Source: an uncultured delta proteobacterium
GTDB lineage: Bacteria > Desulfobacterota > Binatia > UBA9968
Assembly (NCBI GenBank): GCA_963727625.1
Contig: CAVSHR010000012.1
Coordinates: 192,001 to 256,000 of the forward strand
Direction: 5' to 3'
Length of the DNA stretch: 64,000 nucleotides
Position numbers and translations under genes: made by a program. Shown here one piece after another: positions 37,658 to 40,520 of this stretch. The notes under the pieces are model-generated. The model was not told the origin of the DNA and searched no databases. It saw only the letters and a list, made by a program, of their open reading frames with translations. The stretch's first letter is position 1, and every line of letters begins with the position of its first letter.

Positions 37658-40356
37658 TGGTTCATGCTCCGCTCCGGGATCGCATCGAACCAGCCGCGCC
37701 GCACCAGCCACTTCACCAGCTCGAGAACCGGAAAAATGCTCGCGGCTACGCCGAGCAAAACCGCCCACTCGGCCGACGATAAACTCGACGTGCTCAGCGG
37801 CCGCTGCAAAAACGGCGCATAAACAACCGCTGCGAGTAAAACGATTTCCCAGGCGACGGACAGGTTTAACCATTTGTTGCTGAACGGTCGACGCAGCACC
37901 GAATGGCGATCCGAACGATAGTTGTAGGCTTTGAAAAACTCGATGAGCGTGAGACCGGCAAACACCATCGTCATGGCCTCTTCGAGGCTTCGCCCCGAGT
38001 TAAGCGCCCAGCGAAACATCGTCAGATTCACCAGCGCCGACCAAAGCCCGCCGGCGAGCATCAGGGCGACGACGGGCCGGGTAAAAATTCCCCGCCTCGG
38101 ATCGCGCGGTTTTCGCCGCATGAGATCTTCTTCATGGGGATCGACCGCGAGCGCCAATGCCGGCAATCCGTCGGTGGCGAGATTGATGAAGAGAATCTGC
38201 ACAGCGGTGAGCGGCAACGGCCAACCGAGAATCGTCGCACCCCCGAGCACGAGGATTTCCCCTAAATTCGAAGACAAAAGAAACATCAGATACTTCTTGA
38301 TGTTCTCAAAAACTGCCCGGCCCTCTTCAACCGCGGCGACGATGGAGGCAAAGTTGTCGTCGGTCAACGTCATGTCCGCCGCTTCTTTGGTGACATCGGT
38401 GCCCGTGATCCCCATGGCGACGCCGATATCGGCCTTCTTGAGTGCGGGCGCGTCGTTGATGCCATCACCGGTCATGGCGACGGATTCACCGCGCTTCTGC
38501 AGCGCCGTTACGATGTTGAGTTTATGCGCCGGTGAGACCCGCGCGACTACCGTGAGATTCTCCACTTCCCGTTCCAGTGCTTCGTCGGATAACGCGTCGA
38601 GCTCAGCGCCGGTGACGACCTTGCCGTTGGCGAGCATGCCCAACTCTCGCGCCACGGCGCCGGCCGTGAGCGGATGATCACCGGTAATCATCATAGTGCG
38701 AATGCCGGCGCGCGCGCAGGTTTTGATGGCGGCTTTTGCCTCCGGTCTGGGCGGATCGATCATGCCCACCAAGCCAAGAAACACCATGTCCCGTTCGGCG
38801 TGTTCGAGCTCCGCGTCAGGCTTGTACGCCACCGCTAAAACGCGCAGCGCTTCTGCCGCCATCTGCCTGGCGATCTGCACGACTGACTCGTTGGCCGTAG
38901 CGTCTAACGGCACGACCCCGTCCTCGCCCTCGACCCGTGCGCAGGAGTTGAGAACCACCTCGGGCGCGCCCTTGGCGTAAGCGACCGTTCCACCGTTAGC
39001 TGCGTGCAGCGTCGTCATCCGTTTCGACTCCGAAGTAAAGGGTATCTCGTTTACCCGAAGAAATTTCGCGTCGAGCTCGGCCTTATCGAATCCGGCCTTA
39101 GCCGCGGCCACCACCAAAGCGGCCTCGGTGGGATCGCCTTTGATTTTCCAGCCATCATGCTCCGTGTCGTGCATTAACTGCGCGTCCGAGGCCAGAGCGC
39201 CGGCTTGTAACAGCAGCGCCAGCGGGCCGCGCGGCTCGACACCGCGGTTGTGATCGGTAAATTCGCCTTTCGGCTCGTAGCCGCTGCCGGACACGGCGAT
39301 CATGCGTCCGGCGACGAGCATTTTCCGCACGGTCATCTCATCTTTGGTCAACGTGCCGGTCTTGTCCGAGCAGATCACCGACACGCTGCCGAGGGTTTCC
39401 ACGGCAGGGAGCCGACGCACCAGCGCGTTGCGCCGCGCCATGCGTTGCACGCCGATGGCGAGCGAGATGGTCACGACAGCGGGCAGAGCTTCGGGAACCA
39501 CCGCGACCGCCAGCGCGATGCTAAAAATGACCATGTCCAGCAAGGGCTGGCCGCGCAGCAATTCAAGGCCGGCGACCAAGACGACGATCAGCAAGGCGGC
39601 TTGAGCCAGGGTTTTCCCCACCCGATCGAGATTTTTTTGCAGCGGTGTTCTGCCGGTCTCAAGAGTTCGCAGCGACTCGGCGATCTGGCCGAACTCGGTC
39701 TTCATCGCGGTGGCGACGACCACGGCGCGGCCGCGCCCATAAGTAACCGTCGTGCCGGCGTAAACCATGTTATTACGATCGGCGATCGCCAGCTTGCCCG
39801 CTTCGAGAGCCGCAGTCTGCTTTTCCACGGGCATGGATTCGCCCGTGAGCACCGCCTCGTCGCATTTAAGATTGACCGCGTCCACCAGCCGTCCGTCGGC
39901 GGGAACCTTGTCGCCGGTGCGCAGAAAAACAATATCGCCCGTGACCACTTCGCGCGCCGGGATGCTCTGCTCCAGGCCGTCGCGCAGCACCGCCGCAGTG
40001 GGTGCGGACAGTTGGCGCAAGGCGTCGAGAGCGCGCTCGGCGCGATATTCCTGGTAAAATCCCAGCCCCGCCGCGAACAATACAATCACCGCGATGGCGA
40101 GAGCCTCGATCGCATGACCGAGCAACGCCGAGAGGACGATGGCGCAGAGCAGGATAATGATCAGAACGTTCTTGAACTGCTCCAGCAAAATCGCCCAAGG
40201 AGAGACCGGCGGTGCCGCCAACAGCTCGTTGGCGCCATGGCGAGCCAGACGGCGGCGCGCCTCCGCCGCGCTCAGTCCGGTCGCAGCGTCGCTGGCCAAT
40301 TGGCGCAACACGGCGGCGACATCGCTCTCATAGGGCTGCCGGTCCGTCATGGTCAT
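37654..40356 (-). CDS. Cation-translocating P-type ATPase (P2A, Ca2+-type)
   Basis: [40 protein letters not shown]. Confidence 0.95.
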
Positions 40357-40520
40357 TTATTTTTCGTGTTAGCGGTTCCATCCGTATTCTTGCGTCGATC
40401 CTCGACGTCACAAGCACCGGACATTCACGTCGGCACACCGAGGCGCGGCAGCACCCAACGCATGAGCACGATGTAAACGGCGAAGAATATAATGAACCCC
40501 AGCCATTCGGGCATAGTCAT
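40353..40520 (-). CDS. Candidate small membrane selenoprotein (55 aa, U-x4-C)
   Basis: [66 protein letters not shown]; read-through stop overlaps ATPase ATG. Confidence 0.78.
40380..40424 (-). promoter_or_regulatory. Putative bacterial SECIS hairpin
   Basis: Directly after UGA (40425-40427): UCCG..CUUG-(UGA bulge)-CGUCGA-GGA-UCGACG-CAAG..CGGA; G-containing apical loop 23 nt downstream. Confidence 0.7.

Follow-up and report, generated by a model that had tools for sequence, protein, structure and literature searches.

SELENOK and SELENOS are eukaryotic single-pass membrane selenoproteins, with the selenocysteine (Sec) residue near the C-terminus and the SECIS element in the 3′-UTR. KdpF and the peptides of the sarcolipin/phospholamban type are small subunits or regulators of P-type ATPases, and carry neither Sec nor a Cys motif. 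We analysed a 64,000-nucleotide stretch of DNA from an uncultured delta proteobacterium (the window), in which the minus strand from 40514 (or 40520) to 40356 very probably forms a single gene that encodes a membrane protein of ~53 residues with one pass, and whose in-frame UGA would be read as Sec. As in SELENOK and SELENOS, the predicted product would be small, with one transmembrane helix and with Sec in a cytosolic part that is hydrophilic and probably disordered; unlike in those proteins, Sec would come some ten residues after the helix, the SECIS would lie in the coding region, and homology is not expected. Like KdpF, sarcolipin and phospholamban, it would be a peptide with a single helix and a length of a few dozen residues, and the window gene lies directly upstream of a P-type ATPase gene; but the sequences are unrelated, and only 20 of 155 loci have an ATPase nearby.

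The gene most resembles bacterial bSECIS selenoprotein genes, as these are given in the available text of PMC13188914: an in-frame UGA stands opposite Cys in homologs; a hairpin inside the coding region has the loop N-G-[G/U]-N-N, 22 nt from the UGA, and an energy well under −7.5 kcal/mol; and selA, selB, selC and selD are in the genome. Conservation extends to both sides of the UGA, being nearly invariant upstream and showing third-position variation downstream. The known bSECIS selenoproteins differ in being thioredoxin-fold or other enzymes rather than a membrane microprotein of ~53 residues. The UGSC-containing protein (NF041046) and the LULAxC motif protein TsoA (NF045695) are likewise small or motif-defined, with Sec near Cys (PMC13188914, available text); unlike in these, the spacing here is U-x4-C within T-U-M-S-G-x-C, and there is no NCBIfam match at E ≤ 1. 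The YgaP-like transmembrane domain (PF11127, formerly DUF2892) is also found in small membrane proteins, and some of its members end in G-[IV]-x-T-C beside a W/P-containing stretch (L139), but it has two helices and the new family one. Kinship with it, suggested by the common G-x-x-T-C ending, was rejected: neither the window protein nor nine Cys forms gave a Pfam hit to it at E ≤ 1, and hhalign returned a probability of 5.2% over 12 columns with a small alignment of nine PF11127 segments.

The window protein matched no family in Pfam or NCBIfam at E ≤ 1; for the nine small Cys forms, the matches to family models were all at chance level (best E 0.028, all far under cut-off); no small membrane family with U-x4-C stands among the 119 families in Table 1 of the main text of PMC13188914; and the literature searched, including the available text of PMC13326102 and PMC12013277, holds nothing on the family. 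It is absent from Pfam, NCBIfam and, as far as the main-text table extends, the 2026 inventory of 119 selenoprotein families (PMC13188914), in line with the initial annotation of the locus, which did not recognise it as a characterised family.

Layout of the locus

The whole reading frame was read directly from the minus strand of the window. A hydrophobic frame of 29–31 codons precedes the TGA and 23 in-frame codons follow it. The features are:

40523..40528, minus strand: ribosome-binding site AAGGAG, read directly, 8 nt 5′ of the ATG at 40514
40428..40520, minus strand: N-terminal coding part (translation), with an acidic N-end, one transmembrane helix and the invariant R-W-V-L-P ... G-V-P-T
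40514-40512 (likely) or 40520-40518 (alternative), minus strand: ATG start codons, from the sequence
40425..40427, minus strand: in-frame TGA, the candidate Sec codon (codon alignment), residue 30 from the 40514 start or 32 from the 40520 start
40356..40424, minus strand: post-Sec coding part, with M-S-G-A-C, hairpin-encoded D-V-E-D-R-R-K and then a hydrophilic tail
40412-40410, minus strand: second Cys codon, TGT (translation)
40379..40423, minus strand: SECIS-type hairpin (fold and family alignment)
40407-40403 with 40397-40393, minus strand: core stem of the hairpin (fold)
40402-40398, minus strand: apical loop A-G-G-A-U, 22 nt 3′ of the TGA
40353..40355, minus strand: true stop of the read-through frame (TGA), which overlaps the first ATPase ATG (ATGA)
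37654..40356, minus strand: downstream gene, P2-type cation ATPase of 900 aa (Pfam and NCBIfam), PMR1/SERCA-like, under equivalog cut-offs
40608..43973, minus strand: upstream gene, RND efflux permease (Pfam and NCBIfam), ORF as listed, true start probably later
43823-44983: HlyD-type adaptor, 5′ of the RND permease (Pfam and NCBIfam)
44980-46320: TolC-like outer-membrane factor, 5′ of the RND permease (Pfam and NCBIfam)

The elements on which the initial annotation was built (the AAGGAG site, the hydrophobic frame, the UGA at 40425-40427 and the in-frame MSGAC) are all present on the minus strand, and the read-through stop at 40355-40353 overlaps the ATPase ATG at 40356 as ATGA, as it had described. 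Its single-pass protein of 55 residues stands as to the single helix and is revised as to length: ATG 40514 is the likely start, giving a predicted product of 53 aa and not 55, because the GGAG is 8 nt away from it and the equivalent Met starts 15 of 15 relatives. In the relatives this Met is also preceded by GGAG-like sites. The ATPase has an alternative start, an ATG 6 nt further on (40350); whichever ATPase ATG is used, the second stop lies within a few bases of it. No RNA runs are listed for the locus; seven DNA runs are, with shares of 0.05–0.13.

The codon at the TGA position and the frame beyond it

Across 160 instances, i.e. 80 from genome loci and the best 80 of at least 498 metagenome relatives, the aligned codon was TGA in 153, TGC or TGT in seven, and TAA or TAG in none. 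The genome set held TGA in 73, TGC in five and TGT in two (80 motif instances in 79 loci, since among the 80 genome loci L115 has no motif instance and L127 has two), and the best 80 metagenome relatives held TGA in 80 of 80. The search patterns lay upstream of the tested codon, bar one genome pattern that demanded Cys. In 61 related genomes, all matches at E < 1e-9 but one cross exactly one TGA and extend to query residues 35–53; the exception is a frameshifted copy.

Cys forms are plentiful. Searching 1.84 billion representatives with a profile yielded 766 clusters (50% identity) at E ≤ 1e-3 and 84 at E ≤ 1e-10, among which full-length Cys forms of 45–120 aa are numerous. These retain C-M-S-x-x-C, and the TGA aligns with the Cys of an invariant T-C-M-S-G-x-C. 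In a 49-row alignment, for which the Cys-form rows were chosen from the top matches, the G, the T, the Sec/Cys position and the second Cys are all invariant. One TGC locus (L064) and three TGA loci (L160, L191 and L200) have four upstream gene clusters in common, and their comparison reads as an orthologous TGC/TGA switch; the TGC locus keeps the hairpin with one pair broken. Thus homologs ending here in UAA or UAG, which the initial annotation had named as evidence against Sec, number 0 of 160 (including the best 80 of at least 498 metagenome relatives), and Cys, whose absence opposite the UGA it had likewise counted against Sec, is aligned in seven genome loci and many full-length clusters.

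Beyond the TGA the frame varies as coding sequence does, contrary to the unconserved downstream codons that the initial annotation had named as evidence against Sec. In 71 TGA forms the changes are mainly at third positions, with first and second positions fixed: codon 1 is ATG in 69 of the 71; the entropy at codon 2 is 0.21 at position 2 against 1.81 at position 3, and at codon 4 is 0.47 against 1.70; and the third base of the second Cys codon is only ever T or C. The motif conserved in relatives is M-[SA]-x-[SA]-C. In all 142 instances the frame stays open for 15 codons or more, and in the family alignment indels 3′ of the TGA are whole codons. The second stop is TGA in 69, TAA in 43 and TAG in 30 (n = 142). 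It overlaps a start codon in 56 of the 142, an arrangement that makes sense only if ribosomes reach the second stop, and shows no overlap in 83. The tail 3′ of the hairpin varies in length and sequence; its far part is unconserved and disorder-like in composition. The conservation of D/G-V-E-S-R-R may be at the RNA level only, because the hairpin itself encodes these residues.

The second Cys (U+5) is absent in 14 of the 153 TGA forms, which have Arg, Gly or Ser there or a two-codon deletion; all three copies in one genome (G022) are of this kind. The Sec/Cys pair first proposed is thus usual and not obligatory, and the couple cannot be the whole story. 

The suspicion that gene callers miss the true gene proved correct: 29 of 31 database homologs end exactly at G-V-P-T, because gene callers stop at TGA. 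The 29–38-residue ‘hypothetical protein’ annotated in these genomes would be a truncated call. A 50-residue frame ended at UGA is also invisible to inventories, because these are built from annotated proteins and known domains.

The hairpin and the selenocysteine machinery

The hairpin 3′ of the TGA folds as described earlier, with a 6-bp CGUCGA/UCGACG stem and a GGA triloop or, equivalently drawn, a 5-bp stem and an A-G-G-A-U loop, above lower stems CUUG/CAAG and UCCG/CGGA. Its energy in the window is −18.5 kcal/mol (range −16.7 to −18.5). We rejected folding energy as evidence, the window hairpin being no better than shuffles (z = −1.19; 23 of 200 shuffles fold as well). Since energy alone is not beyond chance, the significance of the hairpin rests on conservation and covariation in relatives.

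That conservation is marked. In 74 sequences the register of the hairpin is fixed and 88.4% of cells are paired, against 17–49% in slid controls. The inner four pairs are paired in at least 98%, and four of six pairs change on both sides, with 35 compensatory cells observed, a number that none of 500 shuffles attained (mean 12.7 ± 2.8). The loop G is invariant in the 74 sequences, and the next base is U or G in 70 of 71. Most relatives have the loop A-G-U-C-U, and the window has A-G-G-A-U, with G-G instead of G-U; the hairpin in the selD gene of the window's own genome has A-G-U-C-U, as in most relatives. The bSECIS model, as given in the available text of PMC13188914, has an apical loop of 3–9 nt, an upper stem of 4–16 bp, a G within the first two loop positions, a distance of 16–37 nt from the UGA, and an energy of −7.5 kcal/mol or below. 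Set against the four published constraints in that text, the window hairpin agrees in all, with a 5-nt loop, a 5–6 bp stem, a 22-nt distance and the energy given above (PMC13188914). No Rfam match was found at the hairpin (two chance-level Rfam matches lie elsewhere), nor a terminator-like T run. Three or four of the seven Cys forms retain the hairpin, which fits recent conversion but also a Sec-independent role for it.

The genome that carries the window (G000) has the means to make and insert Sec. All four genes for which a check had been proposed score over their cut-offs: selA at 607 bits, selB at 397 bits, selD at 377 bits and the tRNA-Sec gene selC at 76.7 bits. The selD gene carries one in-frame TGA and is itself Sec-containing. 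Within the order, co-occurrence with the Sec machinery is not discriminating, because selA is over cut-off in 56 of the 61 relatives; it is also present in four of the seven Cys-form genomes. TGA-form genomes carry the Sec machinery with one exception, G009, a fragmented assembly (93% complete, 670 contigs) in which no selA, selB or tRNA-Sec was found.

The product, its neighbours and alternative readings

Because the frame runs on past the UGA, homologs have Cys in place of Sec, the hairpin covaries and the genome can make Sec, we consider the identification as a selenoprotein highly probable on this comparative evidence. In the proposed mechanism, the hairpin, which begins a few bases 3′ of the UGA and has its apical loop 22 nt downstream, would recruit SelB loaded with Sec-tRNA(Sec). 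The product would run from a short acidic N-end, probably outside, through one transmembrane helix to the invariant R-W-V-L-P and G-x-x-T at the membrane surface, and on to Sec, the Cys five residues later and a hydrophilic, Lys/Arg- and acid-rich tail in the cytoplasm. This N-out/C-in topology is predicted from the positive-inside rule. The AlphaFold2 model has a helix at residues 3–26 (pLDDT 79–89 over the first 20 residues) and is of low confidence beyond it (mean pLDDT 68, pTM 0.37 overall). The Sec and Cys would most likely form a selenol/thiol couple at the inner membrane face; such a couple could undergo selenenylsulfide redox cycling or bind a soft metal or metalloid. We put forward a Sec/Cys redox function only tentatively, at somewhat less than even confidence.

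The neighbours give little more, since the neighbourhood is a mosaic, with no single neighbour at more than 34 of 155 loci, and functional inference from it is weak. Genes that recur near the loci encode OsmC-type peroxiredoxins, TlpA/ResA-like thioredoxin-fold proteins, DUF302 proteins, efflux pumps, ArsR regulators, acetate kinase and P2-type ATPases; ArsR-family regulators, a point in common with PF11127, are near nine of the 155 clustered loci and seven of 81 in a smaller locus set, with the annotation made on a cluster representative. We read this setting as stress response rather than a dedicated ATPase partnership. A heavy-metal reading of the neighbours was tried and rejected. The window ATPase is P2-type and not P1B, and the RND pump scores best against multidrug models, under every cut-off and with no clear CusA/CzcA signal, so that a dedicated soft-metal chaperone role is unsupported by the window neighbours. 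An apparent new 175-aa neighbour (cluster 6) proved to be the C-terminal end of a phosphorylase-like gene together with frame artefacts.

In bacteria, decoding of UGA as Sec competes with termination. The locus might accordingly have a dual output, a truncated peptide of 29–31 residues and the full selenoprotein, in a ratio set by the selenium supply, with Sec insertion gating translation of the ATPase. It would agree with this that conservation in the protein is highest ahead of the UGA (Y-I-V-L-M to G-V-P-T is nearly invariant in TGA forms), that the second stop overlaps a start codon at 56 of 142 loci, and that neither ATPase ATG in the window is preceded by a visible Shine-Dalgarno-like site. 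However, the Cys forms have the same architecture without such a switch, at many loci the second stop and the next gene are set apart (no overlap in 83 of 142), and for some downstream genes a GGAG of their own can be read within the tail. Dual output is a real but doubtful possibility; it does not exclude the selenoprotein reading, to which it would add a regulatory layer. A stronger version, in which ribosomes would reach the stop only on Sec insertion and selenium and SelB status would set the translation of downstream stress genes (P2-type ATPase, acetate kinase, DUF302, TrmO-like), with the product as a selenol redox switch beside membrane transporters, seems to us improbable; if true, bacteria would have a Sec-bearing counterpart to the small regulatory peptides of P-type ATPases.

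We think it very improbable that the product serves the P2-type ATPase as a dedicated subunit, whether regulatory or chaperone, much as KdpF or sarcolipin/phospholamban do for theirs, with Sec as a redox switch. The window gene does immediately precede the ATPase, its stop overlapping the ATPase start, and among 155 non-identical loci an ATPase is a neighbour in 20 and directly downstream in eight; but 135 of the 155 have no ATPase within 3.5 kb, and the same downstream place is filled by DUF302 (29), acetate kinase (15) or TrmO-like genes (11). With linkage at 20 of 155 loci only, the family does not group with the P-type ATPase micropeptides.

That the gene simply ends at the UGA, as a membrane micropeptide of 29–31 residues followed by a regulatory RNA hairpin (an attenuator, stability element or protein-binding site) for the downstream gene, is highly unlikely. 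It would account for the 29 of 31 database homologs annotated as ending at G-V-P-T and for the hairpin kept in some Cys forms, and the hairpin-encoded residues and variable tail need no constraint at the protein level. Against it, TAA and TAG are absent at the codon (0 of 160, including the best 80 of at least 498 metagenome relatives) whilst they make up 73 of 142 downstream stops; the TGA stands opposite Cys codons in homologs, and M-S-x-x-C is conserved beyond it; third positions vary in the four codons from UGA to Cys, and the Cys codon varies only synonymously; and post-UGA indels are whole-codon, with no T run or Rfam match at the hairpin. Read-through without Sec, by near-cognate insertion of Trp or Cys or in a reassigned code, is scarcely credible: five database entries with W at the position (P0011, P0036, P0038, P0041 and P0045) would suit it and are taken to be TGA codons that gene callers rendered as Trp, but at these loci no ordinary second stop is commoner than TGA (69 of 142), so the code is standard, the loop and spacing are of SelB type with the loop of most relatives matching that of the selD hairpin in the window's genome, and TGA forms sit in genomes with Sec machinery save the one fragmented assembly.

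On the selenoprotein reading, the family is not rare; it is widespread in soil bacteria. TGA forms occur in genomes of five taxon labels; with Sec and Cys forms counted jointly, the 80 genome loci are labelled Acidobacteriota in 53, Binatia or ‘Deltaproteobacteria’ in 18, Thermodesulfobacteriota in five, Chloroflexota in two and Rokubacteria in one, and metagenome contigs hold at least 498 relatives. If confirmed, a membrane microprotein joins the bacterial selenoproteome, the selenoprotein count of many soil bacteria rises by one to three genes, and a very small and tractable model becomes available for Sec chemistry at a membrane surface. In the protein atlas the nearest cluster, offered here as a lead only, is a 123-member ‘hypothetical protein’ set with Planctomycetota as its commonest taxon and a score of 0.82.

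Gene anatomy and the codon at the Sec position

The small gene between the RND permease and the P2-type ATPase genes is very probably a real selenoprotein gene, judging from the codon, the Cys homologs, the coding pattern, the hairpin covariation and the Sec machinery. The interpretation offered in the initial annotation, that of a hidden membrane selenoprotein, thus stands. The elements of the gene are:

40528-40523, minus strand: ribosome-binding site AAGGAG (sequence reading)
40520 and 40514, minus strand: two candidate ATG starts, 3' of the AAGGAG
40427-40425, minus strand: TGA that ends the hydrophobic frame (translation)
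40355-40353, minus strand: second TGA, closing a read-through stretch of 23 codons, M-S-G-A-C and then a charged tail (translation)

Reading the sequence placed the feature on the minus strand and confirmed the proposed ribosome-binding site, in-frame TGA, M-S-G-A-C continuation and overlap with the ATPase start. The second TGA shares bases with the first ATG of the 900-residue P2-type cation ATPase, which scores best in NCBIfam against PMR1-type and SERCA-type Ca-ATPases, in each case below the cut-off. ATG 40514 is 8 nt from GGAG, and the equivalent Met is the start in 15 of 15 relatives examined. It is the likely true start, and the product would therefore have 53 residues and not the 55 first claimed; the claim of a small single-helix protein held. 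The predicted structure (mean pLDDT 68) shows a single helix at residues 3-26, the rest being poorly defined. The protein has a short, acidic N-end, and since Arg and Lys follow the helix and recur throughout the tail, the positive-inside rule should place the Sec/Cys motif at the cytoplasmic face.

In 61 related genomes, a six-frame search yielded 19 matches at E < 1e-9, each crossing exactly one TGA and reaching query residues 35-53; one extra match at this threshold, without an internal stop, is a copy frameshifted just before the TGA. In a same-genus genome, a second copy of the gene (L222, G004:C5:391900-392500) has a frameshift a few codons before the TGA; the shifted frame still contains the TGA, the M-x-x-S-C codons and the hairpin, and the copy is either a pseudogene or the result of misassembly. 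When 185,579 species genomes were scanned, 107 relatives were found, the nearest being MAGs labelled "Candidatus Binatia bacterium" and "Deltaproteobacteria bacterium". The best 80 of the 107 were kept, labelled Acidobacteriota (53), "Deltaproteobacteria" (11), Binatia (7), Thermodesulfobacteriota/Syntrophobacteraceae (5), Chloroflexota (2) and Rokubacteria (1). In the genome loci, the aligned codon was TGA in 73 instances, TGC in 5 and TGT in 2 (80 instances from 79 loci; L115 has no motif and L127, with two copies, is counted twice). A metagenome scan gave at least 498 relatives, with TGA in all of the best 80. Homologs ending in TAA or TAG here, named in the initial annotation as grounds for rejecting it, numbered 0 of 160 (the 80 genome-locus instances and best 80 metagenome relatives). 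Among the 142 instances with sufficient sequence downstream, the true, second stop of the same genes was TGA in 69, TAA in 43 and TAG in 30. Were the first TGA an ordinary stop, it would not have persisted as TGA across these phyla.

All seven Cys forms retained C-M/L-S-x-x-C. L064, with TGC, has four upstream gene clusters in common with the TGA forms L160, L191 and L200, and is thus one and the same locus as theirs, one species having TGC and the others TGA. The proposed Sec/Cys pair holds for most TGA forms, although the Cys at U+5 (the second Cys of U-x4-C) is absent in 14 of 153 (11 Arg, Gly or Ser replacements and 3 two-codon deletions). All three copies in genome G022 have Arg there. 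Duplication of the small gene within genomes is frequent: L127 has two copies ~2 kb apart, L224 (G019:C28) two ~3.5 kb apart, and G022 three (L223, L035). The G019 copies differ at U+5, one having Cys and the other Arg.

A word-index search of proteins, queried with the read-through product (Cys for Sec), returned 31 entries, 29 of which terminate exactly at G-V-P-T because gene callers stop at the TGA. P0030 extends past the position with Cys and then M-S-G-S-C, and P0011 with W and then L-S-G-Q-C. Several database entries have Trp at the Sec position (P0011, P0036, P0038, P0041, P0045 and others), probably because the pipelines concerned rendered TGA as Trp. Searching 1.84 billion representatives with a profile brought up 766 clusters at E <= 1e-3, of which 84 reached <= 1e-10. 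The majority of the 58 clusters fetched were full-length Cys forms (45-120 residues; core N-R-W-V-L-P ... G-x-x-T-C-M-S-G-x-C), which align Cys to the TGA and are the homologs that the initial annotation had proposed to seek. Gly, Thr, the Sec/Cys position and the second Cys were invariant in a 49-row alignment of 8 TGA forms and 41 Cys forms hand-picked from the top matches. Source databases label the family's proteins only as "hypothetical protein". In P0075 (208 aa, representative library) a Cys form is followed by residues 61-139, which make up a complete thioredoxin domain (PF00085); either as a natural fusion or as a run-on of two adjacent genes, it ties the family to thioredoxin.

Probable translation past the UGA, and the hairpin

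Conservation after the UGA, a check proposed at the outset, was borne out by third-position variation in 71 ungapped TGA forms. Codon 1 is ATG in 69 of 71; codon 2 is [T/G]-C-N (entropy 0.21 at position 2, 1.81 at position 3); codon 4 is T-C-N (0.47 versus 1.70); and codon 5 is T-G-[T/C], its third base never A or G. Such a pattern points to a translated Ser/Ala-x-Ser-Cys stretch, 5' of the core hairpin. In the three length variants the difference is exactly six bases, and in 142/142 instances at least the first 15 codons past the UGA are free of stops. The second stop overlaps the next gene's start codon in 56 of the 142, a translational-coupling arrangement that would be pointless unless ribosomes reach that stop. 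On the opposing side, a conserved D/G-V-E-S-R-R is encoded by the hairpin itself, so that the constraint on it may lie in the RNA only. Beyond the hairpin comes a tail of variable length (3-48 codons) in which K, E, D, S, A and T abound and hydrophobic residues are scarce, and which may serve as hardly more than a spacer. No RNA runs listing the locus were found.

The window hairpin folds as first described (-18.5 kcal/mol), but its folding energy is no better than that of shuffled sequence (z = -1.19; 23 of 200 shuffles fold equally well). The observation is correct, yet the window by itself would not have made it persuasive. Its register is identical in 74 distinct TGA forms. For six base pairs that we specified, 88.4% of cells were paired (at least 98% for the inner four pairs), and four of the six showed changes on both sides, e.g. 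U-A to C-G in 12 sequences. Compensatory cells numbered 35, against 12.7 +/- 2.8 in shuffles, a value reached by 0 of 500. Because a shuffle control overstates significance for related sequences, we gave more weight to the pair types and to a slid control, in which shifting the partner by 1-3 columns lowered pairing to 17-49%.

The bSECIS model, as set out in the Fig. 2 legend of the review PMC13188914, has a loop of 3-9 nt, an upper stem of 4-16 bp, a UGA distance of 16-37 nt and an energy <= -7.5 kcal/mol, with G within the first two loop positions, mostly as N-G-[G/U]-N-N with the outer two paired. The window hairpin, spaced 22 nt, satisfies all four constraints as given there. Most sequences have A-G-U-C-U as the apical loop, the window A-G-G-A-U; the loop G never varies, and the next base is U or G in 70 of 71. 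The selD hairpin of the source genome (G000), which serves as an internal control, has the family's consensus loop, A-G-U-C-U, although it lies ~10 nt further from its UGA. Among the Cys forms the hairpin is lost in 3 of 7 and kept in three or four, L064 retaining it with one broken pair; such remnants are what a recent Sec-to-Cys conversion would leave.

Sec machinery and novelty of the family

The source genome holds the full set of genes whose presence was to be checked: selA (607 bits), selB (397 bits), selD (377 bits) and tRNA-Sec (76.7 bits), each above its curated cut-off. The organism is thus able to make selenocysteine. Its selD has one in-frame TGA and is a selenoprotein gene itself (G000:C5:718540-719466; locus L010, TGA at locus position 1531). 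selA was above cut-off in 56 of 61 related genomes, a tally that takes in the unpublished G005 and G035. Cutting the other way, G009, a genome with a TGA form (93% complete, 670 contigs), gave no selA, selB or tRNA-Sec, which counts against the selenoprotein reading. In G070, also with a TGA form, selB and tRNA-Sec are present and selA was not found. selA was detected in four of the seven Cys-form genomes; selA, selB and tRNA-Sec were not found in G062 and G064, nor selA and selB in G063, which has tRNA-Sec matches above the gathering score.

Very probably the selenoprotein family is new and its decoding follows the known bacterial way. Consistent with the original claim of an uncharacterised family, Pfam and NCBIfam (June 2026 release, including the NCBI selenoprotein models) gave nothing at E <= 1 for the window protein, and nine small Cys forms gave chance-level matches only (best E 0.028, all far below cut-off). 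Table 1 of a May 2026 review gives 119 families with model identifiers and Sec motifs, and the portion available lists no U-x4-C membrane microprotein (PMC13188914). Nothing resembling the family appears in the accessible parts of the BSepDB and deep-Sep papers, and literature searches turned up no paper describing it. A common ending had suggested kinship with the YgaP-like TM domain, but the idea failed a profile-profile test. Separately, L137 (G037:C1:142086-142226, minus strand) matches that domain (PF11127) with one in-frame TGA inside it, and may be either a broken gene or a further selenoprotein of the small membrane type.

Genomic neighbourhood

Across 155 non-identical loci the neighbours form a mosaic, which we read as a stress-response setting with a thiol-redox flavour, rather than a fixed ATPase partnership.

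Families near the small gene (loci out of 155)
DUF302 protein: 34, directly downstream in 29
CBS + CoA-binding protein: 26
ABC ATPase of MacB-type pump: 24
OsmC-type peroxiredoxin: 21
P-type ATPase: 20
Alpha-glucan phosphorylase-like gene: 20, directly upstream
Acetate kinase: 19, directly downstream in 15
HlyD adaptor: 18
Sigma-54 response regulator: 13
RND permease: 12
TrmO-like: 12
ArsR: 9
TlpA/ResA-like thioredoxin-fold gene: 7, directly upstream

Most of the recurrent families are held in one row of the window, which has these further genes around it:

29347-30219, plus strand: CDF cation-efflux protein
30343-31515, minus strand: chromate transporter
34429-48133, minus strand: one gene row of phosphorylase-like, TolC-like, HlyD, RND, small Sec gene, P2-type ATPase, Na/Ca exchanger, CBS/CoA-binding and OsmC-like peroxiredoxin
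49767-52319, plus strand: second P-type cation ATPase
52981-55284, minus strand: NorB-like quinol nitric-oxide reductase

Comparison with family models gave no sign of soft-metal specificity in the window's RND pump or ATPase. In other phyla the row's families are again found near the small gene, but their order changes, as in a stress island that has been shuffled. At L092, L096 and L124 (labelled Solibacteraceae/Bryobacteraceae) and on metagenome contigs (L205, L207, L209, L211), the TlpA/ResA-like gene, with W-C-x-P-C, shares its strand with the small gene and immediately precedes it, ending ~90 nt 5' of the Sec codon.
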